From Steroidobacteraceae bacterium (GTDB taxonomy: Bacteria; Pseudomonadota; Gammaproteobacteria; Steroidobacterales; Steroidobacteraceae), in the NCBI GenBank assembly GCA_035566815.1, contig DATMQL010000115.1, forward strand, positions 1 through 54,891: 54,891 nt of DNA, written 5' to 3'. The notes beneath the pieces are model-generated. The model did not search any database. It was not told where the DNA came from and saw only the letters and a list, made by a program, of their open reading frames with translations. Within the stretch, counting starts at the first letter, position 1. Every line of letters begins with the position of its first letter. Made by a program: the position numbers and the translations under genes. This document shows positions 1-50,514 of this stretch, in pieces.

Positions 1-134
1 CGCGCGCGTGCTCGGGCCGGGCGAGGCTTATTATTTCTCCAGCCAGCTGCCACACCGCTTCCGCAATATCGGACGCGAGGTGTGTGAGATCATCAGTGCC
101 AGCACTCCACCGACTTTTTGAAGCGAATGCCTGT

Positions 135-1637
135 ATGAACGCAAAACTCAATACGACTTCTTCCTGGCACGAGCGCTCCCGCTCGCTGCGTTTCCGCACC
201 CAGGCCTTCATCGACGGACGTTATGTCGATGCCGCCTCGGGACAGACCTTCGATTGCATCAACCCCTCCAATGGAGCGGTGCTTGCCCGCGTCGCCGCTT
301 GTGACGTGGAGGATGTTAACCGCGCGGTCGCCTCGGCTCGTGCGGTCTTTCGGAAAGGCAGTTGGGCGAATCTCGCGCCCGCGAAGCGTAAGAAGATTCT
401 GCAGCGTTTCGCCGACCTCATTCAGGAGAACGGCGACGAGCTGGCACTGCTCGAGACGCTCGATATGGGAAAACCCATCAGCGACAGCCTGAGCGTCGAC
501 ATACCGGCTAGCGCGAATTGCATTCGCTGGTATGCCGAGGCGATCGACAAGGTCTACGACGAGGTTGCGCCCACGGGACGCGAAACACTCGCGTTGATTA
601 CTCGCGAGCCCATGGGTGTGGTCGGCGCGATCGTGCCTTGGAATTTCCCGCTGCTCATGGCGGCGTGGAAAATCGGTCCGGTGCTGGCTGCAGGTAACTC
701 CCTGGTGCTCAAGCCCTCGGAGAAATCGCCTCTGACGGCGATCCGGATCGCCGAGATCGCCATCGAGGCGGGTCTGCCGGCGGGCGTGTTGAATGTCGTG
801 CCGGGCTTCGGACAGACGGCCGGCAAGGCGCTCGCTCTGCACATGGACGTCGATTGCATCACCTTCACCGGCTCGACCGCGACCGGCGGCCTGGTGATGC
901 AGTACGCCGGGCAGTCGAATCTGAAGCGCGTGTCGGTGGAGTGTGGGGGTAAGTCGCCTAACATCGTCATGGCGGATTATCCCGACGTCGAGCGGGCGGC
1001 GGCCGCCGCGGCTACGGCTATCTTTTTCAACCAGGGCGAGGTGTGCTCGGCGGGCTCACGGCTGTTGGTGCACGAAAGTATCAAAGATGCCGTGCTGGAG
1101 AAGGTGCAGGCATTCAGCCGGACCATGCAGCCGGGCGATCCGCTCGATCCGGCCACGAAACTCGGCGCCATCGTGGACGAGATCCAGATGAAGCGGGTGT
1201 TGGGCTTTGTCGAGGCCGGGCGTCGCGACGGGGCGAAGCTGCGCTTCGGCGGCGAGCGTGTTCGGACGGACTCCGGCGGCTATTTCATCGAGCCGACCGT
1301 GTTCGAAGGTGTACGGCCGAATATGACGATTGCGCGGGAAGAGATCTTTGGGCCGGTGCTTTCGGCCATCACGTTCAAGACCGTCGAGGAAGCGATCGAG
1401 ATCGCCAACGACGTGATTTACGGCCTCGTCTCGGCGGTTTGGACGCGGGATATCACTGTCGCCCATCGTGTTGCGAAGGCCCTCCGCGCCGGTACGGTCT
1501 TCGTGAACTGCTATGACGCGGACGACATCACCGTGCCGTTCGGCGGCTTCAAGCAGTCGGGCATCGGGCGCGACAAGTCGCTGCATGCGTTGGAAAAGTA
1601 CACCGAGCTGAAGACGACCTGGATAGACCTGTCCTGA
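135..1637 (+). CDS. puuC: NAD-dependent aldehyde dehydrogenase, gamma-glutamyl-gamma-aminobutyraldehyde dehydrogenase-like
   Basis: ORF 84..1637 (GTG at 84; the ATG at 135 gives about 500 aa). ALDH hallmarks VLKPSEKSPLTA, ECGGKSP and the catalytic-Cys segment FNQGEVCSAGSR. Full-length resemblance to E. coli PuuC, including the C-terminal DKSLHALEKYTELKTTWI. puuB/puuD/puuA lie nearby. Confidence 0.85.
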   Translation: MNAKLNTTSSWHERSRSLRFRTQAFIDGRYVDAASGQTFDCINPSNGAVLARVAACDVEDVNRAVASARAVFRKGSWANLAPAKRKKILQRFADLIQENGDELALLETLDMGKPISDSLSVDIPASANCIRWYAEAIDKVYDEVAPTGRETLALITREPMGVVGAIVPWNFPLLMAAWKIGPVLAAGNSLVLKPSEKSPLTAIRIAEIAIEAGLPAGVLNVVPGFGQTAGKALALHMDVDCITFTGSTATGGLVMQYAGQSNLKRVSVECGGKSPNIVMADYPDVERAAAAAATAIFFNQGEVCSAGSRLLVHESIKDAVLEKVQAFSRTMQPGDPLDPATKLGAIVDEIQMKRVLGFVEAGRRDGAKLRFGGERVRTDSGGYFIEPTVFEGVRPNMTIAREEIFGPVLSAITFKTVEEAIEIANDVIYGLVSAVWTRDITVAHRVAKALRAGTVFVNCYDADDITVPFGGFKQSGIGRDKSLHALEKYTELKTTWIDLS

Positions 1638-4069
1638 GTACCGCGCCTCTGCAATTTCTGGTCAGCTCCCCGCGGGGGCTGTCGGACCTGCTGGCGCGCG
1701 AGTTGGTTGCGCTGGGCGCGACGGATGCGCGTGAGCGGTCGACGGGAGTCACGTTCTCGGCGGAACTGGAGGTCGCGTATCGGGCGTGCCTGTGGTCGCG
1801 CGTGGCGAATCGGGTATTTCTCGAGTTAGCGCGGTTTGATGCGGTCGACGCGGATGGGTTTTACACCGCTGTTCGCGAGATTGACTGGACCGAGCATCTC
1901 GGGCCGGAGGCCACGCTTGCGTGCGATTTCAGCGGGCAACATCCCGCGATCACGCATACACATTTCGGCGCGCTAAAGCTGAAGGACGCTATCGTCGACT
2001 CGGTGCGCGATTCACGCGCGTGGCGGCCGAGTGTGGAGCTCGAGCGGCCCAGTGTGCGCGTTCACGCGCATGCTCATGGGAATAGCTTTGTGGTGTCGTT
2101 GGACTTGTCTGGCGAGAGTCTGCACCGCCGGGGTTACCGGGGGGCCGCCGGAGAGGCGCCGCTGAAGGAGAATGTGGCGGCGGGCGTTTTGTTGCGGTCG
2201 GGTTGGGGGGATCTTGCGGCCGGCACTACGGAATTCCTCGATCCCATGTGTGGATCGGGGACGTTTGTGATCGAGGCGGCGCTGATTGCCTCCGATCGGG
2301 CGCCGGGGCTCGATCGGGAATACTTTGGGTTTCTGGGGTGGGCCGGGCACAACGTCGACGCTTGGGAGCGCTTGCTTGTTGAGGCGCGTGCGCGGGCGCG
2401 TGCCGGTATGGATGCTGCGGTTGCCCGGGGGCTCGAAGGGGCCATCCGCGGGCGGGATCGGGATTCGGGTGCGGTGCGGAACGCTCGTGGGAATGCTGAG
2501 CGGGCGGGGGTGCAGCGGCTGGTTAGGTTTGATGTTGGGGTGTTGGCGGATGCGGCGCCGATGGAGCGGGTGCGGGTGAAAGGCGCTTCGGCGGAGGACG
2601 CAGAGGGCGGTCTGTCGCTGCCGGCCGCGGGGGATCTGGCGCGGGCTACCGAGACCCGCCCGATGCGGTCGACCGAGGAGGCTGCGATTGAGCCGCCCAT
2701 GGCCGCGTCCCTGGCCCCTGCAGCGGCGGGCTTGCTTTGCACTAATCCCCCCTACGGGGTACGGCTCGACGATCGTGATACCGCGCGCGCGGTTCATCGC
2801 GAGTTAGGTGTCGTTCTTCGCGAGCGCTTCCAAGGTTGGAATGCCGCCGTGTTGACCGGCACGCCGGAGTTCGGTCTGGAGTTGGGCATCCGGGCCCACC
2901 GCACGCATACGGTGTGGAACGGCGCGATTGAATGCCGCTTGCTGCGCATGAAGGTAGACACCGGCAGCGCCCGCGAGCCTGGCCGGCTGGGTAAGGGCGA
3001 CACGAATCTACGTGACACTCCTGGCGCGCAGATGTTCGCGAATCGTCTCGCGAAGAATCTCAAGAAGCAGCAGGCTTGGGCGGACCGCAGCGGCGTGTCG
3101 TGTTATCGGCTGTATGACGCTGACATGCCGGAGTATGCGTTTGCTATCGATGTGTATCGGACGATTGGGGAGGCACAGGGCGAGCCGGCGAGCAATACGG
3201 CCGACGCTCGTGGGGTCGGCAGAGCGGGGTCGGTCGCAGGAGGCTCTCCGGGCGCGGGCGAATTGACCTGGCTGTACGTCCAGGAGTATGCCGCGCCGGC
3301 GGAAATCGAGCTCGAGTCTGTGCGTAAGCGCCGTGGGGAGGCTCTCTCCACACTTGCGGATGTCACCGGTGTTGCTCAAGAGCGCGTCCGCGTCCGAACA
3401 CGCCGCAAGAACAAACGAGGTGAGCAGTACAGCAAGGTGCAGGATCGCGATAACTATTACGTCGTGATGGAGGACGGTCTGAAGTTTCTCGTGAACTTCG
3501 ACGACTATCTCGACACGGGTCTGTTCCTCGATCACCGTACGACACGCGGGCGGCTTCGAGCCGCGGCCTCCGGAAAGCGATTCCTGAATCTGTTCGCCTA
3601 CACCTGTACGGCGACGGTCTACGCTGCCGCGGGCGGCGCCGTGTCGACGACGTCCGTTGATATGTCGAATACCTATCTCAATTGGGCTCAACGCAACTTT
3701 GAGCTGAACGGGCTCTCCCCGGATCGCAACGGGCTGGTGCAAGCCGATTGCCGGGTATGGCTGCAAGAGGCGAATCGGAGCCGCGAGCGGTACGACCTCA
3801 TCTTCATCGATCCTCCGACGTTCTCGAACTCGAAGCGTATGGAAGGGGTGTTCGACGTCGAGCGCGACCACCCGGAGTTCATCGACGGTTGTGTGCGCCT
3901 GCTGGCGCCGGGCGGCCTGATCGTGTTTTCGACGAATTCCCAACGGTTCCGGCTGGATGAGTCGCTGTCACAGCGTTACGACGTCCGTGACATCTCCGCC
4001 GGGACGTTACCTAAGGACTTCGAGCGTAACCCGCGCATTCACCGGTGTTTCGAAGTACGTGTAGGGTGA
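1634..4069 (+). CDS. rlmL: 23S rRNA m2G2445/m7G2069 bifunctional methyltransferase RlmL (RlmKL)
   Basis: ORF track 1703..4069 (TTG). The segment LQFLVSSPRGLSDLLARELVALGA, matching the E. coli RlmL N-terminus ([23 protein letters not shown]), lies upstream of 1703. That frame is open there but has no ATG/GTG/TTG, so I propose the CTG at 1634, which overlaps the puuC stop. NPPYG motif (LLCTNPPYG); C-terminal methylase module FLNLFAYTC...DLIFIDPPTFS. Confidence 0.85.
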   Translation: MSTAPLQFLVSSPRGLSDLLARELVALGATDARERSTGVTFSAELEVAYRACLWSRVANRVFLELARFDAVDADGFYTAVREIDWTEHLGPEATLACDFSGQHPAITHTHFGALKLKDAIVDSVRDSRAWRPSVELERPSVRVHAHAHGNSFVVSLDLSGESLHRRGYRGAAGEAPLKENVAAGVLLRSGWGDLAAGTTEFLDPMCGSGTFVIEAALIASDRAPGLDREYFGFLGWAGHNVDAWERLLVEARARARAGMDAAVARGLEGAIRGRDRDSGAVRNARGNAERAGVQRLVRFDVGVLADAAPMERVRVKGASAEDAEGGLSLPAAGDLARATETRPMRSTEEAAIEPPMAASLAPAAAGLLCTNPPYGVRLDDRDTARAVHRELGVVLRERFQGWNAAVLTGTPEFGLELGIRAHRTHTVWNGAIECRLLRMKVDTGSAREPGRLGKGDTNLRDTPGAQMFANRLAKNLKKQQAWADRSGVSCYRLYDADMPEYAFAIDVYRTIGEAQGEPASNTADARGVGRAGSVAGGSPGAGELTWLYVQEYAAPAEIELESVRKRRGEALSTLADVTGVAQERVRVRTRRKNKRGEQYSKVQDRDNYYVVMEDGLKFLVNFDDYLDTGLFLDHRTTRGRLRAAASGKRFLNLFAYTCTATVYAAAGGAVSTTSVDMSNTYLNWAQRNFELNGLSPDRNGLVQADCRVWLQEANRSRERYDLIFIDPPTFSNSKRMEGVFDVERDHPEFIDGCVRLLAPGGLIVFSTNSQRFRLDESLSQRYDVRDISAGTLPKDFERNPRIHRCFEVRVG

Positions 4070-4147
4070 TAGGCGTCACGCCCCCGGGCCTAAAAGGCGC
4101 CTCCGGCCCGCTTTACTTGCCGCCCGGCGTCAGGTAGCGTTAGGTCC

Positions 4148-4222
4148 ATGCTCAAGACCACGAAAACGCGCAAGATTATCAAGAAGCCCTGGGGTGGGGC
4201 CCTGGAGACCTTCGCGCGCTGA
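4148..4222 (+). CDS. candidate 24-codon leader peptide MLKTTKTRKIIKKPWGGALETFAR (Lys/Thr/Ile-rich) upstream of asd
   Basis: ATG at 4148, TGA at 4220-4222. Codons 3-13 are K T T K T R K I I K K. It is a local AT-rich patch in GC-rich intergenic DNA and is followed by the terminator at 4250..4288. The SD is weak (AGG only 3 nt upstream). Confidence 0.35.
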   Translation: MLKTTKTRKIIKKPWGGALETFAR

Positions 4223-4249
4223 TCGTACGTCGAGAAGCACCGAATCCAA

Positions 4250-4288
4250 GAGGCCCCGCCGGTAACCCCCGCGGGGCCTCTTCGTTTT
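4250..4288 (+). terminator. rho-independent terminator / attenuator hairpin upstream of asd
   Basis: GAGGCCCCGC (4250-4259), an 11-nt loop, GCGGGGCCTC (4271-4280), then TTCGTTTT. This gives a perfect 10-bp GC-rich stem plus a T-tract. Confidence 0.75.
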
Positions 4289-4332
4289 GGCGAATCACTA
4301 TCTTCAAGTCATGGGTTTTGGGGAGTCATAGC

Positions 4333-5364
4333 ATGCAATCTGGTCGTCCTTCCTCGTCGGCGCCCGTCGTGGCAGTCGTTGGCGCCACCGGCGCGGTCGG
4401 TGTCGAGTTAATGCAGTGCCTGGAGCAGCGGCGCTTCCCGCTGTCGAACTTGCGGCTGTTCGCGTCCGCGCGCTCCGCCGGTAAGACGCTTCCCTTCCGT
4501 GGCAAGCCGGTGACGGTGGAGGAGTTGACCGACGACAGCTTCAGCGGTGTCGACATCGCGTTGTTTTCTGCGGGTGGGAGTCAATCGAAGCGCTTCGCCC
4601 CGGCCGCCGTCCGCGCGGGCGCTGTGGTTGTCGACAACTCGTCCGCGTTTCGTATGGACCCCGGTGTGCCGCTCGTAGTGCCGGAGATCAACCCGGAAGC
4701 GGTGCGTGAGCACAAGGGCATCATCGCCAACCCCAATTGCTCGACCATTATTTCCATCACGCCGCTGTGGCCCATTCACAAGATCAACCGCATTCAGCGC
4801 ATGATCGTTGCCACGTACCAGGCTGCTTCCGGTGCCGGAGCCGCGGCGATGGAGGAGTTGCGCGAGTCGACGCGCGCCTACCTCGAAGGCCGCGAGTACA
4901 AGAACACCGTTCTGCCGCATCCGTACGCATTCAACCTCTTCAGCCACAACTCGAAGATCGATCCTTCGAACGGCTACAACGAGGAAGAAATCAAGGTGAT
5001 GCGCGAGACGCACAAGATCTACGGCGACTCGACTATCCGCGTGGCCGCCACCTGCGTTCGGGTTCCGGTACTGCGCGCTCACAGCATCGCCATCAACTTC
5101 GAGTGCGAGCGCCCCATCACCCCCGCGCAGGTGCGTGATGTCATGCAAACCGCGCCGGGTGTGAAGGTCGTGGACGATGTCGAGCGCAACTACTTCCCGA
5201 TGCCGAAGGACGCCTCCGGCCAGGATCCGATTCTCGTCGGCCGTATCCGCCAGGACGTCAGCGACCCCAGCGGCCGCTCCATCGCCTTGTTCGTCGCCGG
5301 CGACCAGCTTCTGAAGGGCGCGGCTTTGAATGCCGTGCAGATTGCGGAGTTGTTGCTGAAGTAG
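4333..5364 (+). CDS. asd: aspartate-semialdehyde dehydrogenase (short, about 343 aa type)
   Basis: ORF 4318..5364; ATG at 4333 with GGGGAG 8 nt upstream. Motifs VAVVGATGAVG (NADP fold), the active-site Cys in IANPNCSTI, and VRVPVLRAHS. Confidence 0.93.
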   Translation: MQSGRPSSSAPVVAVVGATGAVGVELMQCLEQRRFPLSNLRLFASARSAGKTLPFRGKPVTVEELTDDSFSGVDIALFSAGGSQSKRFAPAAVRAGAVVVDNSSAFRMDPGVPLVVPEINPEAVREHKGIIANPNCSTIISITPLWPIHKINRIQRMIVATYQAASGAGAAAMEELRESTRAYLEGREYKNTVLPHPYAFNLFSHNSKIDPSNGYNEEEIKVMRETHKIYGDSTIRVAATCVRVPVLRAHSIAINFECERPITPAQVRDVMQTAPGVKVVDDVERNYFPMPKDASGQDPILVGRIRQDVSDPSGRSIALFVAGDQLLKGAALNAVQIAELLLK

Positions 5365-5365
5365 C

Positions 5366-6658
5366 CTACAACAAATCTCTGAGCCTGTAATACAACATCG
5401 CGAGCGCCAGGGCCGGGCGGCGCAAGGCGGTGCCGGGAAAGCTGCGGTGGGGGATTTTCGCGAATACGTCGAAGCGCTCGGCGGTGCCGGCGATGGCTTG
5501 GGCGACGAGCTTGCCGGCGATGCCGGTAAGGGCGATGCCGTGGCCTGAGAATCCCTGCAGGAAATAGATGTTGGACGCGAGCCTGCCGAAGTTCGGGGCG
5601 CGGTTCAGCGTGGCGTCCACGTATCCGCCCCATGAATAGTCGATTCGGGCGTCCGCGAGTTGCGGAAAGACCCGCAACATGCGCTCACGTGTGGCCGCCA
5701 TCGCATCGAACGAGCCGAAGCCTGAATGGCTGACCCGGCCACCGAACAACAGCCGGTGATCCGCGGAGCAGCGGTAGTAATCCAGCACCCAGTTCATGTC
5801 GCAGACGGCGGCGTTGTTGGCGATGAGCTCGCGCGCCCGTTGCGCTCCGAGCGGCTCCGTCGCGACGATGTGCGATCCGATCGGTATGATTTTGGTGGCG
5901 AGGGCGGGGGCCGTGTCGCCGAGGTATACATTGCCGCACAGAACCAGGTCGTGCGCGCGAACCTCGCCACGCGGAGTTCGAATCCGCACGGTGGCACCGC
6001 TCGTGCCACTAGCCTGTCTGAACCCCAGCGCCCGGGTCCCTTCGAAGATCATTACGCCATTGCTTGCCGCGGCTGCTGCCAACCCGAGTGTGTAGTTGAG
6101 CGGATGCAGATGCCCGCTGTACGAGTCGTAGAGGGCGCCGACATAACGCGACGTACCGAGAATCGAGCGCAGCTCATCTCGAGGCACATAACGGACGCTC
6201 GTGTATCCGAGTTTGTTTTGCAGTTGGTCGAGCTCGGTGTGCAACTCATGCAGATGTCGCTGTTTCACCGCCGTCATCAGGTAGCCATCCGTCCAGTCGC
6301 AGTCGATCCGGTGCCGGCTGATGAGCTCTCTCATCAGTGCGAGCCCTTCGACGGAAACGTCCCACACGGTGCGGGCCGCGGCCGCTCCAATGAGACGCTC
6401 GAGTTTTGTTTGGCCGGATGCGACGCCGTGGATCGCCTGGGCACCGCTGCGTCCGGAGGCACCCCAGCCCACGCGGTATTCGTCGAGAAGTACGACCTTG
6501 TAGCCGCGTTCGGCGAGATGGAGGGCCGCAGAGCAGCCTGCGATGCCTCCGCCGACCACACAGACATCACAGTCGACAGAACTCTCGAGCTCCGCACGGT
6601 CAGGTGCCGCGTGAGCCGAAGCCGCGTAGTACGACTTGATGCGCACAGGACGTGCCAC
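5366..6658 (-). CDS. puuB: FAD-dependent oxidoreductase, gamma-glutamylputrescine oxidase-like
   Basis: ORF 5366..6724. KSYYAAS...DCDVCVVGGGIAGCSAALHLAERG aligns with the E. coli PuuB N-terminus (SSYYAAS...CDVCVVGGGYTG), so a GTG start at 6658 or 6646 is more likely than 6724. Confidence 0.8.
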   Translation of the reverse strand: MARPVRIKSYYAASAHAAPDRAELESSVDCDVCVVGGGIAGCSAALHLAERGYKVVLLDEYRVGWGASGRSGAQAIHGVASGQTKLERLIGAAAARTVWDVSVEGLALMRELISRHRIDCDWTDGYLMTAVKQRHLHELHTELDQLQNKLGYTSVRYVPRDELRSILGTSRYVGALYDSYSGHLHPLNYTLGLAAAAASNGVMIFEGTRALGFRQASGTSGATVRIRTPRGEVRAHDLVLCGNVYLGDTAPALATKIIPIGSHIVATEPLGAQRARELIANNAAVCDMNWVLDYYRCSADHRLLFGGRVSHSGFGSFDAMAATRERMLRVFPQLADARIDYSWGGYVDATLNRAPNFGRLASNIYFLQGFSGHGIALTGIAGKLVAQAIAGTAERFDVFAKIPHRSFPGTALRRPALALAMLYYRLRDLL

Positions 6659-39674: not shown

Positions 39675-39781
39675 AACTATTCGCGCCTCGCATTTGAGCT
39701 CAACGCCGCCAGTTTCTCACGAACTCGTTCCCATCCAGTCGATGTCGGGACGATAATCGAGACCGCGGGCGGCGCGGCGGC

Positions 39782-39896: not shown

Positions 39897-41510
39897 ATGG
39901 CAAATGAGGGTGCTGGTGCTGCTTCGTTGAGCCGACGCGAGCTGCTGGGGATGATCGGCGCGACCGCCGGTGCGGGCGCCATGTATCAGGCCATGAGCAG
40001 TCTCGGCTTTGCGGCGGAATCTCCCTATCGGGGGCCGATCGATCTGCAAGGAGCCCCGCGCGGCGCCTCCGTGCTGGTGCTGGGCGCCGGGATGGCGGGC
40101 ATGACCGCCGCCTACGAGCTGCGCAACGCCGGCTACCAGGTGCAGGTGTTGGAGTTCAACGGCCGCGCCGGTGGCCGCAACTGGAGCCTGCGTGGTGGTG
40201 ACACTTACACCGAGCTCGGTGGGGCCACCCAGCATTGCGAGTTCGATAAGGACTTGTACATCAATCCAGGCCCGTGGCGGATCCCGTACCACCACCGCGG
40301 TATGCTCAATTACTGCAAGCGGCTCGGCGTTCCGCTGGAAGCGTTCGTCCAGGTCAACTACAACGCGTACCTGCATAACAGTCGTGCCTTCGGCGGTAAG
40401 CCGCGGCGCTATCGCGAGATCAAAGCGGATTACCAGGGCCATGTGGCCGAGCTGTTGGCGAAGGCCACCCGGCAGAGTGCGCTCGATGCCTCGGTGAGCA
40501 AGGAGGATCGGGAGAAACTGCTCGAATCGCTGCAGGCCTGGGGCGCGCTCGACCGAAACTACTCGTACGTCGCCAGCAGCTCGAGCAGCGAGCGGCGGGG
40601 TTACCTGAAGCATCCGGGAGGCGGACTGACCGCACGTCCGATCCCTTCCCAGCCGATCGGCCTGGCCGACATCCTGGATTCGCGGCTGTGGGAAGGCATC
40701 CCGGTCGGTGATGACTTCGACATGCAGACGGCGTTGTTCCAGCCGGTGGGTGGAATGGGCCGTGTGGGTGAAGCGTTCGGTCGCGAGCTCGGGCCGTTGA
40801 TCCGCTACAACTCCAAAGTGATCCAGATCCAACAGGACGAGCACGGTGTCACCGCCACCTATGAAGACACCGGCAAACCCGGAACGAAGCTCACCGCCAA
40901 GGCAGATTGGTGCGTGTGCACGATTCCGCTGCCGATCCTCGCGCAGATCCCGATGAATGTCGGTCCGTCGCTGGCTGCGGCGATCGGAGCGGTGCCGTAC
41001 GCCTCGGCTGTCAAAGTCGGCCTGCAGTTCAAGCGCCGCTTCTGGGAGGAGGATGATCACATCTACGGTGGCATCAGCTACACCGATCTGCCCATCACCA
41101 ACATCGGTTACCCGAATTACGGCTATCACAGTGGCGGCAAGGGTGTACTGCTGGGCGCCTACATCTGGGGCCGCAACGCGATGGAATTCACCGCAATGGC
41201 TCCGCAGGAGCGTGTGATGAAAGCCGTGGAGTACGGAAGTCAGATTCACCCGCAATACCCCAAGGAATTCGAGAACGGCATCGCCATGGCATGGCATCGC
41301 TCGCCCTTTACCATGGGCTGCTTCGGAATGTGGACCACGGATACGCGTGCCAAACATTACGATGACCTGTGTCGGATTGACGGACGCATTGCGCTTGCCG
41401 GTGAGCACGCATCCTTCATAGGCGGTTGGCAGGAAGGCGCGGTCACGTCAGCACTGGATGCGATCGAGCGGGTACATAAGCTCGCGGTGGCGCAGGGGGG
41501 CAAGGCATGA
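39897..41510 (+). CDS. Tat-exported flavin-containing amine oxidoreductase (monoamine oxidase / L-amino-acid oxidase family)
   Basis: ORF 39804..41510; ATG at 39897 with GGGGG 6 nt upstream. Twin-arginine signal SRRELLGMIGATAGAGA. FAD fold VLVLGAGMAGMTAAYEL...LEFNGRAGGR. C-terminal FAD segment IALAGEHAS...GWQEGAV. Confidence 0.85.
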   Translation: MANEGAGAASLSRRELLGMIGATAGAGAMYQAMSSLGFAAESPYRGPIDLQGAPRGASVLVLGAGMAGMTAAYELRNAGYQVQVLEFNGRAGGRNWSLRGGDTYTELGGATQHCEFDKDLYINPGPWRIPYHHRGMLNYCKRLGVPLEAFVQVNYNAYLHNSRAFGGKPRRYREIKADYQGHVAELLAKATRQSALDASVSKEDREKLLESLQAWGALDRNYSYVASSSSSERRGYLKHPGGGLTARPIPSQPIGLADILDSRLWEGIPVGDDFDMQTALFQPVGGMGRVGEAFGRELGPLIRYNSKVIQIQQDEHGVTATYEDTGKPGTKLTAKADWCVCTIPLPILAQIPMNVGPSLAAAIGAVPYASAVKVGLQFKRRFWEEDDHIYGGISYTDLPITNIGYPNYGYHSGGKGVLLGAYIWGRNAMEFTAMAPQERVMKAVEYGSQIHPQYPKEFENGIAMAWHRSPFTMGCFGMWTTDTRAKHYDDLCRIDGRIALAGEHASFIGGWQEGAVTSALDAIERVHKLAVAQGGKA

Positions 41511-41944
41511 GGTGGCTGGTCGCACTGCTGTTTGCCTTTGCAGCCGCCATCGCTTGCGCGGCCGATGCGGCATTCGCTCCGAAAGCCGCCGTCGACAGTG
41601 CCAAGGGCGCGGAGGTTTACGGACACGTTTGCCAGGGTTGCCACATGCCGCAAGGGGCGGGCGCCGTCGGCGCGGGTCATTATCCGAAGCTCGCGGGCGA
41701 TCGTGCCCTGTCATCCTGGCAGTATGTCGCGATGACGGTGCTTGGTGGCCGCAACGGCATGCCGCCGTTCGGAGTGCCGGCCGATGGGCAACTGGAGATT
41801 TTCGCGGCGTATCTGAGCGACGAGCAAATCGCTGACGTGGTCAATTACGTCCGCGCTCACTTTGGTAACAAGTACAAGGACAAAGTGACCGCCAGCCAGG
41901 TCGCGAGCCTGCCGCATCCGGGGTCTGTGACCTCCGCGCGTTGA
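41507..41944 (+). CDS. monohaem class I c-type cytochrome, periplasmic
   Basis: The ATG overlaps the oxidase stop (ATGA). Sec signal MRWLVALLFAFAAAIACA, haem site CQGCH and a likely Met ligand in NGMPPF. Confidence 0.85.
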   Translation: MRWLVALLFAFAAAIACAADAAFAPKAAVDSAKGAEVYGHVCQGCHMPQGAGAVGAGHYPKLAGDRALSSWQYVAMTVLGGRNGMPPFGVPADGQLEIFAAYLSDEQIADVVNYVRAHFGNKYKDKVTASQVASLPHPGSVTSAR

Positions 41945-41993
41945 AGTCCGGGCGGCGCGGCCAGCGTTGACGCTGGCTCTAAAGTTAGCCTAT

Positions 41994-42016
41994 ACTTACG
42001 GTAAGTTTAAACTTAC
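41994..42016. promoter_or_regulatory. overlapping palindromes ACTTACgGTAAGT and GTAAGTTTAAACTTAC upstream of the membrane-protein gene
   Basis: 42001-42016 is a perfect 16-bp palindrome. 41994-42006 is a 13-bp palindrome around a central G. This is an AT-rich island in GC-rich DNA, 17 nt before the ATG at 42033. Confidence 0.4.
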
Positions 42017-42032
42017 GAATGTAGGCATCACC

Positions 42033-42479
42033 ATGAATGCGAGGCTCTTTCTGCGAAGCGCCGCCGTCATCACCCTGCTGCTGACGGTGGGCCATATGCT
42101 GGGGAGTCCATGGACTCCCGTGCAGACCCCGCCGGGTCTCGCGGTCGTCACCGCAATGAAGTCCTATCGCTTCCCCGCGATGGGATTCGAGCGGACCTAC
42201 TACGAGTTTTATGTCGGATTTGGCTGGCTGTTGGCCGCGTACGCGGCCGCGCATGCCGTGATTTTCTGGCAGCTCGCCGGTTTGTCGAGCCAGTTTCCCG
42301 GCAAGCTTCGCCCGGTCGTGGCCGTGTTATGCCTGGAAGCCGTGTGCGGGGCGCTGTTGGAATGGAAGTTTCTTTTCTGGGGGCCCATCGTGTTGTCCGC
42401 GGCCACCGCGGCGTGTCTCGCAGTGGCCTGGAGGTTGATGCGGCCGGACACGGCGGCGCTGGGTGCGGCGGCGGCCTGA
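42033..42479 (+). CDS. small integral membrane protein (4 predicted TM helices), function unknown
   Basis: ORF 41967..42479; ATG at 42033 (MNARLFLRSAAVITLLLTVGHMLG...). Four hydrophobic stretches and no catalytic motif. Confidence 0.6.
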   Translation: MNARLFLRSAAVITLLLTVGHMLGSPWTPVQTPPGLAVVTAMKSYRFPAMGFERTYYEFYVGFGWLLAAYAAAHAVIFWQLAGLSSQFPGKLRPVVAVLCLEAVCGALLEWKFLFWGPIVLSAATAACLAVAWRLMRPDTAALGAAAA

Positions 42480-42489
42480 CGTGGGCGGA

Positions 42490-43905
42490 TCACGGCGCAC
42501 CGGCGGTGCTGAAAGCTTTCATCAAGCGGTAGGTGAATTCCCCGCCTTCCGCGAACAGAGTGGCTTTGATCCGCTCATCCTGGCCGTGCGCGCGCATGTC
42601 TTCGAGGTCGAAGAAGTTCGAGGCCGCACCGTAGCTCGGCATGCCGGCCGCGCGGGTGTACTTCGAATCCGAGGCGCCCGCATCCATGCTCGGCATCGCC
42701 GTCAGGCCTGGCCACATCGAGTGCACTACCCGGTCGTAGACCGCCATGATCGCGGCGCTCGGCGGCGATTCCGGACTCGGGGTCGCGGCCCGGGTGATGG
42801 TCAGTTTCAGCGCCGGGTCGGCGAGCACCCGCTCCAGCGCGGCCTTGGTTTGCTCCTGGGTATCTCCAGGCAACATCCGGCACTGAATGGTGGCCCGCGC
42901 CCGCTGCGGTAGAGCATTTTCGGCGTGTCCCGCTTCCAGCATGGTCGCGACGCAAGTCGTCCGCACCTGCGCGTTGTCTGTTGGGTCGGTCGCCAGGCGC
43001 TCCGCGGCAGCCGTATCCCCGGTGCCGACGGCACGCATGTCAGCCTGTCGGGTACCCGACTCGAACTGCGCCTGGCGCGCATAGAATGCAAGCACCGTGT
43101 CAGTCAGCCGGATGGGAAATTTGTAGACGGCCAACCGATCCAATCCGGCCGTCAATGCATAGATCGCGTTGTCGGGGCGTGGCTCGGAACTGTGGCCGCC
43201 CTTGTTGGTCGCCTCGGCGGCGAACGTGACATACGATTTTTCGCTGGTCTGCACGCCATAGAAGGCCCGCCGGCCGCCACGAAACGCACCGGTCCCCGAG
43301 TCCGGATTCAGCACCAGTCCCGCATCGATCAGGTCCCGATGGGTGCGAACCAGCCAACCCACGCCTTCGTCGCCACCCGCCTCTTCATCGGCCGTGAAAG
43401 CCACGATGATGTCGCGGGCGGGTACGTACGCTTCCCGTTTCAGTCTGAGCAGCGCCGCGGCGACGTTGGCGTCCTCGCCCTTCATGTCCAGGCTGCCACG
43501 ACCATAAATCCAGCCGTCTTTTTCCGTCAGCGCGAATGGCGGAACGCTCCAGTCCTCGGGTTTTGCCGCCACTACATCGAGATGGCAGAGGTACAGCAAC
43601 GCCTTGCCTTTTCCATGTCCCTTAAGTGTGACAATCAGGTTTGACTGCGTTGGGTTGGCAGAATTGGCCACCACGACGAGGTTCGCGGCGGGAAACCCCG
43701 CGGCCAGGAAGCGGGTACGCAGCGCGTCGACTGCCGCCGCGGTGCCCTTCTCGTAAGTGGTATCGATAGAGAGCAACTCGCCGAGGATCGTCCTGGCGTC
43801 CCCGGAAGGGTTCGCCGCGCCCGAAGGATTCGTTGCGCCTGCGGCCACCGAAGCACAGACGCTCAGTAATCCTGCTCCGAGCAGGCCCACCGTGACTTTG
43901 GACAT
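42490..43905 (-). CDS. secreted M20-family metallopeptidase
   Basis: Signal peptide; CHLDVV, GRGSLDMKG and FTADEEAGG metal/catalytic motifs. SD AAGGGGGAG upstream. Confidence 0.85.
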   Translation of the reverse strand: MSKVTVGLLGAGLLSVCASVAAGATNPSGAANPSGDARTILGELLSIDTTYEKGTAAAVDALRTRFLAAGFPAANLVVVANSANPTQSNLIVTLKGHGKGKALLYLCHLDVVAAKPEDWSVPPFALTEKDGWIYGRGSLDMKGEDANVAAALLRLKREAYVPARDIIVAFTADEEAGGDEGVGWLVRTHRDLIDAGLVLNPDSGTGAFRGGRRAFYGVQTSEKSYVTFAAEATNKGGHSSEPRPDNAIYALTAGLDRLAVYKFPIRLTDTVLAFYARQAQFESGTRQADMRAVGTGDTAAAERLATDPTDNAQVRTTCVATMLEAGHAENALPQRARATIQCRMLPGDTQEQTKAALERVLADPALKLTITRAATPSPESPPSAAIMAVYDRVVHSMWPGLTAMPSMDAGASDSKYTRAAGMPSYGAASNFFDLEDMRAHGQDERIKATLFAEGGEFTYRLMKAFSTAGAP

Positions 43906-47575: not shown

Positions 47576-48535
47576 TCACGGATCCAGGGACGCCGCGTAG
47601 GCGGCCAGATCGATCATGTCTTTCTGTGTGAGTCGGGCTACGACGGCGTGCATCGGCTGCGCGACCTCTCCCCCGCGGGCGCCGGATTGAAAACCATATA
47701 ACTGGCGAAACAGGTAGCTCGCGAAGCGACCCGCCAGGGGCGGTCCCGGCAGTCTTGGGCCGCCCCTGAGATCCGGGCCATGGCAGAGCGCGCAGGGTTG
47801 AGTGCGGTCGTGGGCGCCGGTGCGTGCCAACAGGCGGCCGCGCTCGATGCTTCCCTTCGGAACGTACGCGACGTAGGTGGTGTGAGGATCTCTGCGCTCG
47901 AAGCGCTCGAGGTCTATCGGCATCTCGACGATGGCCGAGCCCAATGACACTCGACCTTTACGCGCGGGCGCGAAAATGAAGCAGGCAGCGGTGTGCTCAG
48001 GCACCCTGTCGCTCTCGACCACGTGGACAAATGACCGCACCTGCTGGTGCGAGAAGTAGTCAGCCGCGGCGGCCAGCTCCTCCTCGGTGAGTTCCGCCGT
48101 CGAGTTGACCATCAAAGTGGCGGGGGGCCAGTCCGGTTGGGCCGCTCGACGCTCCAGGGTGTGAAACGCCTTGACCTGCGCGATGATGTAGGACGGCGGC
48201 AAACCCGCGAGCTTGGCATTTTCAGGCCGGCCATTGCCGTCCGGCAAGTGGCAAAACCCGCATGCGGGTTTTTTCGGCAGGTGATTTCCGGCGACCACGG
48301 GCGGCAAAGCCCCGTGCTCGCGCGGAAACCAATCCGGTGTGCTGGAGCGGTCACGAAGCTCCGCCCTCGTGAAGTGAATTCCGGACCCGGCCACGCTCAG
48401 GGATTGGGCGGCGTCCAGTTTGCCGGAGGGAGCAGCGGCGGGGCACGGCGGATAGGCCCAGCCCGGGAATTCAGCAGCGAGCGCCGTCGATGTCAGGAAT
48501 ATCGCGTTGAGGACAACAGCCCGGAGCAAACGCAC
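47576..48535 (-). CDS. periplasmic dihaem c-type cytochrome
   Basis: The GTG start overlaps the stop of the upstream gene (TAGTG). Signal peptide, and two haem sites, CGFCH and CALCH. Confidence 0.8.
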   Translation of the reverse strand: MRLLRAVVLNAIFLTSTALAAEFPGWAYPPCPAAAPSGKLDAAQSLSVAGSGIHFTRAELRDRSSTPDWFPREHGALPPVVAGNHLPKKPACGFCHLPDGNGRPENAKLAGLPPSYIIAQVKAFHTLERRAAQPDWPPATLMVNSTAELTEEELAAAADYFSHQQVRSFVHVVESDRVPEHTAACFIFAPARKGRVSLGSAIVEMPIDLERFERRDPHTTYVAYVPKGSIERGRLLARTGAHDRTQPCALCHGPDLRGGPRLPGPPLAGRFASYLFRQLYGFQSGARGGEVAQPMHAVVARLTQKDMIDLAAYAASLDP

Positions 48536-49146
48536 TATCGACCTAACACCCAGAAGTTGGGTCCGCGCTCCTTTTCGAGCTTGCCGAGCTGTTCGCGGTG
48601 AATCTCGCGTACCCGTGCGGGCGTAATGGCTTCCGAGCGGTCGACCTCCTCTATTTTCAGGCTGGTCTTGTCCTCGTAGAGGTGCTCGCCGGCGAGGCGA
48701 GCTCGATTATCGTACGGCCAGATGAACGCCTGGCGGCTGTAGACGTGATAGAGCCTGTCGGCGTGATCGACTTCATAGCCGATGTGCCTCAGGTCCGCGC
48801 CCATGGCGAGCTGATGGAAGGTGATTTCGTCGCAGACTCCCCAGTCGCCGACGGCGAGGCGGTCATCGGAGTGCCATAGCACCGCTTCGCCGACGCTGTT
48901 GTAAAACGCGAGTACGCCCTGTTTTCCTTCGATGACGGCGGGATTCGCGCCCCAGGTCACCCGGTACACGGGGTGATCCACGATCATGTCAGGTGCCAGG
49001 ATCTTCTCGTACTCTCCCGCTCCCTCCAGGTGCACGTGCCGCCAGAAGTTGAGGAGAATGGCCCGATGTAGCGGGTCTGTCGTACGTTCCAGAAGCCTCG
49101 CGGTGGGCTTCATGCAGTCGTACACGGCTTGCTCGAATCGATTCAT
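48535..49146 (-). CDS. hypothetical cytoplasmic protein, possibly NTF2/SnoaL-like fold
   Basis: ORF 48535..49290; ATG at 49146 preceded by GGGGG 5 nt upstream. 203 aa with no signal peptide. The fold guess rests on size and pattern only. Confidence 0.5.
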   Translation of the reverse strand: MNRFEQAVYDCMKPTARLLERTTDPLHRAILLNFWRHVHLEGAGEYEKILAPDMIVDHPVYRVTWGANPAVIEGKQGVLAFYNSVGEAVLWHSDDRLAVGDWGVCDEITFHQLAMGADLRHIGYEVDHADRLYHVYSRQAFIWPYDNRARLAGEHLYEDKTSLKIEEVDRSEAITPARVREIHREQLGKLEKERGPNFWVLGR

Positions 49147-49245
49147 GTTCGCCCCCATCAGTGCGCCGCCGGCGGACGGCAAATATAGCAGGCCGGGTAA
49201 TTCGAGCGGTATTATGGTCCGCGAGGGGGATGAATTGGAGGTCCG

Positions 49246-50514
49246 ATGGCGGATGGACGTGACGTGCGCGCGCCGACGGGCCCCGTGCAAGTGGTGCTAT
49301 GGGTCTGCGTAGCCTTACTCGTTAACTACATCGATCGCGGTAATCTGGCAACTGCCGTACCGCTCATACACGGCGAACTCGGCCTGTCGGCAACCCAGCT
49401 CGGAGTGCTCCTCTCGGTTTTCTACTACAGCTACGTCGCCATGATGGTGCCGGCGGGCTGGTTGGGTGAGCGTTACGGCGCGCATCGGGTTCTTGCGGCG
49501 GGGCTGGTAATCTGGTCGGTGGCGACTTTGCTTACCGGCTTCGCCACGGGCTTCTGGTCTCTTCTGCTGTTGCGCCTGCTGCTCGGTGTGGGAGAGAGCG
49601 CCGGATTTCCCTGCGCTTCGCAGCTTTTCGCCAGCCGGCTGCGGCTGCCACAACTCGATATGGCGAACGGCGTGCTCGGATTCAGCTACCTGGTCGGTCC
49701 CGCGATTGGTACGGTGTTGGGCGGCTTGCTGATGCCGATCTACGGGTGGCGTGCCGTGTTTGTTGGGTTCGGCGCACTGTCGCTGCTGTGCGTGTGGCCG
49801 CTATGGCGCTTGCGTCTGCAGCCGGCAGCGCGATGCGCGGACGAGACTTCCTTTGCGGCCGCGCCCAGCTTCGCTCTCATTCTCAAACAGCGCGGGCTGT
49901 GGGGCGCATCGCTCGGTCTCTTCGCCAGCAACTACAACTTCTATTTCATCCTGGCATGGCTGCCCGATTATCTCGTGAAGGAGCGCGGGTTTTCCATGAG
50001 CGGGATGGCAGCCGTGGCGGGTAGCGCCTATCTCATCAACGCCATCAGCGCACTCGTGGCAGGGTGGGTAGTCGCCACCTGGACACGCAACGGGCGTTCG
50101 CCCAGTATCTTCTATAAGTCCCTGATGGCGTTTGCGCACACCGCATCCATCGGCGCGATGATCGGCATGATGGTGTTACCACTGGCGGGATGCATAGCCT
50201 GTTTGTGCCTGTTCGAGCTCGGGGTCGGCATCATGTCGCCCGGGGTGTATGCAATCCCACAGATCATTGCCGGGCCCACCGCGACGGGACGTTGGGTTGG
50301 TGTCCAGAACGCGTGTGGGAATCTCGCCGGGATGGTGGCGCCGCTGCTGACCGGAATTCTGCTCGATGCAACCGGACATTTCTCGAGCGCATTCGTGCTT
50401 GCCGGGGCGATCAACATACTGGGCCTCATCGGCTGGCTGTGGATGCTGCCGCGAATCGAGCCGTTGGATTGGTCGCGGGCCGCGCTCCAGGCTCGAGTGG
50501 TCCGTGCGGTTTGA
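49246..50514 (+). CDS. MFS transporter (anion:cation symporter-like)
   Basis: NYIDRGNL, a GWLGERYGAHR loop and about 12 hydrophobic segments. Confidence 0.85.
   Translation: MADGRDVRAPTGPVQVVLWVCVALLVNYIDRGNLATAVPLIHGELGLSATQLGVLLSVFYYSYVAMMVPAGWLGERYGAHRVLAAGLVIWSVATLLTGFATGFWSLLLLRLLLGVGESAGFPCASQLFASRLRLPQLDMANGVLGFSYLVGPAIGTVLGGLLMPIYGWRAVFVGFGALSLLCVWPLWRLRLQPAARCADETSFAAAPSFALILKQRGLWGASLGLFASNYNFYFILAWLPDYLVKERGFSMSGMAAVAGSAYLINAISALVAGWVVATWTRNGRSPSIFYKSLMAFAHTASIGAMIGMMVLPLAGCIACLCLFELGVGIMSPGVYAIPQIIAGPTATGRWVGVQNACGNLAGMVAPLLTGILLDATGHFSSAFVLAGAINILGLIGWLWMLPRIEPLDWSRAALQARVVRAV

Follow-up and report, generated by a model that had tools for sequence, protein, structure and literature searches.

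A Tat-exported L-amino-acid oxidase-type flavoenzyme gene overlapping a cytochrome c gene in Steroidobacteraceae: a predicted periplasmic L-amino-acid dehydrogenase

The stretch of DNA analysed here, hereafter the window, comprises 54,891 nucleotides (contig DATMQL010000115.1, assembly GCA_035566815.1) from a member of the Steroidobacteraceae whose metagenome-assembled genome (4.4 Mb) is 71% complete. Its forward strand carries two overlapping genes, a lao-like gene for an L-amino-acid oxidase (LAAO)-family flavoenzyme, exported through twin-arginine translocation (Tat), and a cccA-like gene for a Sec-exported cytochrome c, which together may encode a periplasmic dehydrogenase. The lao-like gene (39897..41510, +) is a flavin amine oxidase (FAO) open reading frame (ORF) that opens with the ATG at 39897, closes with the TGA ending at 41510 and encodes a predicted FAD-dependent protein of 537 aa with the N-terminus MANEGAGAASLSRRELLGMIGATAGAGAMYQAMSSLGFA/AES. 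The cccA-like gene (41507..41944, +) encodes a monohaem class I cytochrome c of 145 aa that matches Cytochrom_C (PF00034, E 3.2e-11) and Cytochrome_CBB3 (PF13442); it contains a single haem motif, CQGCH (C42-Q-G-C45-H46, nt 41630-41644), and by the class I pattern M85, within GMPPF, is the probable sixth haem ligand. The genes meet at GCATGAGG, where the cytochrome's ATG and the oxidase's TGA share bases in an ATGA start/stop overlap (41507..41510, +) that points to translational coupling. The initial annotation of this DNA, made from the letters alone, had described these ORFs, coordinates and motifs in the same way, and in this it was accurate. Upstream of the oxidase gene lies a weak candidate sigma-70-like promoter (TTCCCA-18-GATAAT, 39728..39757, +; 9/12 in a consensus scan, a consensus match only). 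A palindrome in the upstream region, TCTACGGTAGA, was checked for conservation and discarded: outside its own locus in this genome it was found once, at an unrelated position in locus L043.

Residues 1 to ~39 of the flavoenzyme (39897..40013, +) form a twin-arginine signal peptide, judging from the sequence and from homologue N-termini: S12-R13-R14-E-L-L is followed by a mildly hydrophobic stretch that ends in G-F-A, with predicted cleavage after G37-F38-A39. The initial annotation had worried that this signal might be an artefact of a wrong start codon. The leader is instead translated and conserved, because homologues (51-97% identity) share the start region, beginning 10-20 residues before a common [ST]RRxLL motif, and this motif is kept in 66 of 68 readable homologue N-termini. 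Neither arginine varies in two independent alignments, which take in the sister clade described below, and the mature chain of the Rhodococcus opacus LAAO aligns from residue 49 of the oxidase. The cytochrome leader (MRWLVALLFAFAAAIACA) is of the classical Sec type and ends in A-C-A; an N-terminal leader was present on all orthologous cytochromes compared. One feature of the Tat leader is unusual for a cleaved signal peptide: its hydrophobic part, MIGxxAGxxAMYQAMSSLGFAAES (39930-40013, residues 12-39), is conserved nearly like the mature enzyme (L001-L102), from Gamma- to Alphaproteobacteria. Possibly a chaperone or a proof-reading step acts on this part, or it is retained as an anchor.

The flavoenzyme matches Amino_oxidase (PF01593, E 4.6e-56) over residues 66-525 and carries GAGMAG (residues 63-68) as its GxGxxG FAD-binding motif. 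NCBIfam holds no specific model for it, public sources label it 'monoamine oxidase', and it is matched at E <= 1e-20 by over 7,700 clusters (90% identity). Among PDB chains the top sequence match is the R. opacus LAAO (2JAE, E 1.1e-85, residues 49-530), followed by vertebrate and snake-venom LAAOs, L-glutamate oxidase and L-lysine oxidase; monoamine oxidases are far weaker matches. The AlphaFold model (pLDDT, the predicted local distance difference test score, 88.8; 29 homologues as input) fits 2JB1/2JAE with a template-modelling (TM) score of 0.96 and a root-mean-square deviation of 1.7 A in Foldseek, in which ranks 1-36 among the matches listed are occupied throughout by L-amino-acid, L-glutamate or L-lysine oxidases. 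NicA2 and Pnao are found neither among the best 60 PDB sequence matches nor at Foldseek ranks 1-50 among the matches listed. R128, Y422, K373 and W511 align with the corresponding residues of 2JAE and of the snake-venom LAAOs, and in an alignment of 169 homologues the first, third and fourth are invariant and Y422 is Y or F. Following the LAAO structure papers, we take R128 and Y422 to be the clamp for the substrate carboxylate, K373 to be the lysine at flavin N5 and W511 to be the C-terminal tryptophan. As judged from sequence and model, the flavoenzyme is an LAAO-type protein, neither NicA2-type nor polyamine-oxidase-type, because its nearest PDB sequences and folds are LAAOs and the active-site residues are kept. 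The initial annotation had read it as a NicA2-like enzyme; membership of that family was rejected, the nearest sequences and solved folds being those of L-amino-acid, L-glutamate and L-lysine oxidases. A search of its own genome for paralogues of the oxidase gave nothing beyond matches to the FAD motif.

The pairing of the two genes is widespread. We collected 80 related loci from contigs, one genome per species, from Steroidobacteraceae, Nevskiaceae, Rhodanobacter, Dyella, Arenimonas, Alteromonas, Marinobacter, Oceanisphaera, Betaproteobacteria, Rhizobiales, Rhodobacterales, Azospirillaceae, Sphingomonas and Gluconacetobacter. A cytochrome homologue adjoins the oxidase in 78 of them (76 directly downstream, 2 directly upstream), and the other two run off the end of a contig. 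Among 400 evenly sampled Pseudomonadota genomes, 13 had an oxidase match; all ten matches of at least 51% identity adjoin a cytochrome, and about 2% of the sampled species have such a close copy with its cytochrome. Every evaluable relative of at least 51% identity (88/88) thus has the cytochrome next door. When overlap was tested directly, 57 of 85 same-strand pairs showed a 4-nt start/stop overlap (44 ATGA, 13 GTGA) and a further 24 a gap of <=30 nt. The orthologous cytochromes contain exactly one CxxCH in 83 of 85 cases and keep CQGCHM, GMPxF and NYVR[ST]HFGN (83/85). In contrast, loci centred on relatives of 32-43% identity, a sister clade from Pseudomonas, Acidobacteriaceae, Caulobacter, Sphingomonas, cyanobacteria and Paenibacillus, gave a cytochrome homologue in none of 80. 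The pairing of oxidase and cytochrome is far beyond chance, and its conservation in other genomes, on which the initial annotation had made its case depend, is borne out (78/80 and 10/10 loci versus 0/80).

A maximum-likelihood tree of 104 enzymes placed all 60 cytochrome-linked sequences on one side of a single branch (support of 100 in the Shimodaira-Hasegawa-like approximate likelihood ratio test, SH-aLRT; length 0.53), the window protein and those of three Gluconacetobacter species among them, and one change of state explains cytochrome linkage across the tree. Twenty-eight positions separate this clade from the cytochrome-less sister clade, including Trp127, beside the clamp arginine. The clade includes Steroidobacteraceae (with the window), Nevskiaceae, Rhodanobacter, Alteromonas, Marinobacter, Rhodobacterales, Acetobacteraceae and others, and by all sequence comparisons made here the pairing is clade-wide, monophyletic and translationally coupled.

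Two genomes show other arrangements. In genome G245 (contig C5, 58924-63482; L094 and L107) two diverged oxidase copies, 61% and 52% identical to the window protein, face each other ~1.4 kb apart, each with its own cytochrome c, one copy being ordered ridA-cytochrome-lao. In genome G307 (L103:352-3039, -) a divergent LAAO-type enzyme (37% identity), on a long branch in the tree, is accompanied by a different, two-domain cytochrome c (203-aa ORF, two PF00034 stretches) whose gene sits between lao and ridA. This suggests that a cytochrome was recruited a second time, separately, and the two-domain protein is reminiscent of the di-haem c4 partners of the clade 1 FAOs (Akram 2025, PMC12224317).

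Clustering of all ORFs of the 80 loci revealed only one other recurrent neighbour, a RidA/L-PSP protein of ~174 aa (PF01042) with its own signal or lipoprotein leader. It is encoded directly after the cytochrome in 25 of the 80 loci, recurs beside the pair in several of the sampled Pseudomonadota genomes and is present in 39 of the 80 sister-clade loci; RidA is a frequent, not a constant, member of the cluster. Within the window no Rid gene adjoins the pair, and an exported orthologue, 52-56% identical, is found unlinked in the same genome (contig C116, L089:1444-2000, -), where it sits between an adenosine-deaminase-like gene and a gene for a CheY-like response regulator. Rid proteins are described as hydrolysing 2-imino acids, which amino-acid oxidases form as their direct products (Niehaus 2015, as cited in PMC5053998), and therefore the recurrence of RidA independently indicates an alpha-amino-acid substrate.

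A di-haem cytochrome c peroxidase (CCP) gene adjoins the pair in 11 of the 80 loci, and none lies beside it in the window. In nine Steroidobacteraceae-type loci (L013 (7185-8988), L015, L017, L018, L022, L028, L030, L065 and L069) the pair is followed, 1-2 kb away, by genes for a tetratricopeptide repeat (TPR) protein and the peroxidase (PF03150), and in two Gluconacetobacter loci (L071:6981-7778, -, and L077) a CCP-like gene is convergent to it. The peroxidase is possibly an H2O2-scavenging side branch fed by the same cytochrome.

The gene pair itself has a genetic precedent, which the initial annotation missed. In Gluconacetobacter diazotrophicus PAL5, Tn5 insertions in lao (GDI2456) abolish the formation of indole-3-acetic acid (IAA) from tryptophan (Rodrigues 2016, PMC5053998). 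The product of GDI2456 is an LAAO with a Tat signal that shares 34% identity with the R. opacus enzyme, and the gene is clustered with cccA and ridA (lao-cccA-ridA, GDI2456-2455-2454); the authors, citing Lee et al. 2004, suggested that the cytochrome c may carry electrons that LAAO function needs (PMC5053998). The window shares with this cluster a Tat-signal LAAO-family enzyme followed by a small cytochrome c. The comparison was made through three other species, G. aggeris, G. asukensis and G. tumulicola (loci L071, L075 and L077), rather than with the PAL5 sequence: their enzymes are 52-53% identical to the window protein, with the same lao-cytochrome arrangement and the same ATGA overlap. 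Because they fall in the same clade at SH-aLRT 100, the window pair is, to go by these relatives, an orthologue of Gluconacetobacter lao-cccA. Differences exist: in the window ridA is not adjacent but on another contig, Tyr422 is replaced by Phe in the Gluconacetobacter branch, and G. diazotrophicus is an acetic acid bacterium whereas our host is an uncultured Steroidobacteraceae/Nevskiaceae-like gammaproteobacterium. What was known already is thus the lao-cccA gene pair; what is added here is a clean phylogenetic split and, from it, a strong prediction of clade-wide cytochrome dependence.

Two further families of relatives frame the interpretation. With the R. opacus LAAO (2JAE/2JB1) the window enzyme shares its fold, 35-40% identity over the whole mature protein, the carboxylate clamp and the flavin-N5 lysine, and a twin-arginine leader has been reported for that enzyme too (PMC5053998); the R. 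opacus protein differs in being a secreted, H2O2-forming oxidase of a Gram-positive bacterium, without a cytochrome partner. The electron-transfer logic is that of NicA2 and Pnao of Pseudomonas putida S16, which use the cytochrome CycN (Stull laboratory; PMC12224317). The same behaviour extends to over 100 amine oxidoreductases that carry a Tat signal and have a cytochrome c beside them, spread over three clades that BLAST searches starting from NicA2 uncovered (PMC12224317); reoxidation proceeds at 1e4-1e6 /M/s with the cytochrome (clades 2 and 3) versus 24-6600 /M/s with O2 (Akram 2025, PMC12224317). Dehydrogenase function was best predicted by the presence of a neighbouring cytochrome gene, and Tat-only FAOs were oxidases (PMC12224317). 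The window pair shares with NicA2/CycN, Pnao/CycN and the FAOs of Akram 2025 the combination of a Tat-exported flavoenzyme with a monohaem class I cytochrome c that is encoded next to it and exported by Sec, and, by prediction, the logic of periplasmic electron transfer into the respiratory chain. Unlike NicA2 and Pnao, it belongs to another branch of the superfamily, has RidA as a recurrent third gene and appears to use an alpha-amino acid where they use an alkaloid or amine. PMC12224317 makes no mention of LAAO, RidA or Gluconacetobacter in its text, and contains no LAAO-type members in its text, species lists or supplement; our literature search found no biochemical demonstration of a cytochrome-c-dependent LAAO and no paper tying LAAO to cytochrome dependence of the NicA2 type.

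We thus propose, with a probability of roughly 0.7, that the pair is a periplasmic two-protein L-amino-acid dehydrogenase, orthologous to Gluconacetobacter lao-cccA, whose flavin is reoxidised by cytochrome c rather than by O2. Because the rule linking a Tat-signal oxidase and an adjacent cytochrome c to dehydrogenase function has been published for other clades, this function is the most probable one, well supported if indirectly, and the predicted activity of the enzyme is that of an L-amino acid:cytochrome c oxidoreductase (deaminating). The initial annotation's Tat/cytochrome dehydrogenase logic therefore stands, on comparative evidence and the rule of PMC12224317; its choice of family and substrate does not. 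According to the signal sequences, the flavoenzyme would fold with FAD in the cytoplasm before Tat export, and the cytochrome would be exported by Sec and matured in the periplasm. From the homology and fold match to the R. opacus LAAO, an L-alpha-amino acid would be held by the Arg128/Tyr422 clamp and would pass a hydride to FAD, giving a 2-imino acid, which would then yield a 2-oxo acid and ammonium, spontaneously or aided by periplasmic RidA. The co-translated cytochrome c, not O2, would reoxidise the reduced flavin by taking up its two electrons one at a time, as the clade-wide gene coupling and the kinetics published for other clades suggest, and the cytochrome would deliver its electrons to a terminal haem-copper oxidase. 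Three genes for haem-copper oxidase subunit I (COX1) are present in the host genome, and their products are predicted to be able to reoxidise cytochrome c. In sum, external amino acids would give ammonium and keto acids, with energy conserved and little H2O2 formed.

The substrate is most likely an L-alpha-amino acid and not a polyamine, because the carboxylate-clamp residues are conserved and RidA is the recurrent third gene. The initial annotation had guessed at an amine, possibly a polyamine, in a window 'full of polyamine and guanidino-amine genes'. This description is overstated: what the window does contain is one agmatine deiminase, with an amino-acid permease at 20.7-23.3 kb, ~17 kb from the pair, and one thiamine diphosphate (ThDP) enzyme, a decarboxylase, with a major facilitator superfamily (MFS) transporter at 49.2-52.1 kb, ~9 kb away. 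These genes are what a primary amine other than a proteinogenic L-amino acid (a polyamine, agmatine or another guanidino-amine) would have in its favour as substrate. They are, however, 9-17 kb off, in other transcription units, and near the pair in no other locus, and a substrate deduced from them was rejected; the conserved Arg/Tyr clamp of the LAAOs, the action of the recurrent partner RidA on 2-imino acids and the uniform alpha-amino-acid oxidases at Foldseek ranks 1-36 among the matches listed further argue against such an amine, which we regard as very improbable. It is possible that L-arginine is converted to 2-ketoarginine feeding the ThDP enzyme, which would still be use of an L-amino acid. 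As for specificity, the R. opacus LAAO and the tryptophan phenotype of G. diazotrophicus weakly suggest that it is probably broad, or biased to aromatic or hydrophobic amino acids.

Several observations weigh against the proposed dehydrogenase. For the whole LAAO-type clade the cytochrome is assigned as oxidant from gene context alone; the closest characterised homologue, that of R. opacus, works as a true oxidase and forms H2O2; K373 preserves the flavin-N5 lysine, a residue that promotes reaction with O2; Y422 is Phe in the Gluconacetobacter branch; RidA lies outside this operon; a cytochrome-linked enzyme of B. anthina reacts comparably with O2 and with its own cytochrome (PMC12224317); and the peroxidase genes beside the pair in 11 of 80 loci hint that some H2O2 is made. 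A rival scheme is one in which the enzyme is a genuine periplasmic H2O2-forming LAAO and the cytochrome c instead feeds a di-haem peroxidase that removes the H2O2. Such a scheme would agree with the oxidase activity of the closest characterised relative, the conserved K373, the CCP_MauG genes 1-2 kb from the pair in nine Steroidobacteraceae-type loci and convergent to it in two Gluconacetobacter loci, the six CCP-family matches elsewhere in the host's own genome and the finding that Tat-FAOs without a cytochrome are periplasmic oxidases (PMC12224317). However, the peroxidase is absent beside the pair in 69 of 80 loci and in the window, whereas the cytochrome is universal and usually overlapping. 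Under this scheme H2O2 would equally be made by the sister clade, in which 80 loci are without a cytochrome, and why that clade should lack both cytochrome and peroxidase is left unexplained. Moreover, the cytochrome would still need a reductant, and the flavoenzyme is the only redox enzyme always encoded alongside it. We therefore hold the oxidase-plus-peroxidase scheme to be unlikely, noting that dehydrogenase and peroxidase can coexist, the reduced cytochrome partly removing H2O2 formed as a side product.

An enzyme with two acceptors, acting as a dehydrogenase as long as it finds oxidised cytochrome c and as an oxidase when it does not, seems to us more doubtful again. The B. anthina enzyme, with its comparable rate constants for O2 and cytochrome c (PMC12224317), provides one example of this behaviour among cytochrome-linked FAOs, and K373 and the occasional adjacent peroxidase genes would fit it. 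Yet most of the cytochrome-linked FAOs tested favour the cytochrome, those of highest O2 reactivity still 290-550-fold (PMC12224317), and no sequence feature discriminates the dual-acceptor from the cytochrome-preferring case. The cytochrome-less Tat-LAAO and RidA pairs (Pseudomonas, Caulobacter etc.) offer the natural comparison: at 32-43% identity they have the RR leader and the exported RidA in common with the cytochrome-linked clade but form a separate clade in which all 80 loci lack a cytochrome c gene, and their enzymes are presumably true periplasmic oxidases.

Under the dehydrogenase interpretation, we lean towards regarding the cytochrome-linked LAAO clade as a fourth, apparently independent lineage of cytochrome-c-dependent dehydrogenases in the FAO superfamily and the first that acts on alpha-amino acids. 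An LAAO-type enzyme wired to cytochrome c corrects the 'monoamine oxidase' annotation of a very abundant protein, and extends to alpha-amino-acid substrates the finding that many amine oxidases are dehydrogenases. If the proposal is true, widespread 'monoamine oxidase' proteins would be respiratory L-amino acid:cytochrome c oxidoreductases, through which soil and marine Proteobacteria gain nitrogen and energy from external amino acids without H2O2. It would also offer a mechanistic explanation for an older genetic link, in Gluconacetobacter, between cytochrome c maturation and auxin production: cytochrome c biogenesis mutants, studied by Lee and colleagues in 2004, reportedly also lack IAA production, and the loss of auxin synthesis in such mutants of G. 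diazotrophicus would be accounted for. The always-cytochrome and never-cytochrome clades, both with RidA, form a natural pair for the study of how flavoenzymes switch between O2 and a protein oxidant, and L-amino-acid deaminases that form no H2O2 would be of interest for keto-acid biocatalysis and biosensors.

The immediate neighbours of the pair in the window are genes for a divergent S-adenosylmethionine (SAM) methyltransferase, a TonB-dependent receptor, a LIC_13387-family protein, a convergent exported M20 peptidase and TrmO; not one of these five is a conserved neighbour of the pair in other genomes. The methyltransferase and the TonB receptor were rejected as partners, as they are not conserved beside the pair and recur only in a relative of 97% identity; so was the M20 peptidase, which recurs only twice, at a distance. 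The latter (42490-43905, -; PRK09133-like, NCBIfam E 5e-152) has a signal-like N-terminus and is convergent to the operon; a periplasmic peptidase of this kind could supply free amino acids, its gene not being conserved near the pair elsewhere. About 6 kb downstream (47576-49290, -), a 318-aa c-type cytochrome with two cytochrome c domains is encoded, coupled to a protein of ~250 aa without a Pfam match; as far as seen, these genes are unrelated to the lao pair.

The membrane protein directly downstream (42033..42479, +; ~4 transmembrane segments), which the initial annotation mentioned as following the pair, is real, matching the LIC_13387 family (NCBIfam NF047765, E 4e-28), but it is probably a bystander. 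It was rejected as a third component: across 80 other loci no homologue is encoded 5 kb or less from the pair, and the gene is preceded by a promoter-like site of its own. The interval from the cytochrome stop codon to this gene (41961-42032) contains a GC hairpin without a T-tract, then the candidate promoter, TTGACG-18-TATACT (41967-41996; 10/12 in a consensus scan), over AT-rich palindromes. Because so good a promoter-like site precedes it, the LIC_13387 gene probably has its own regulated promoter.

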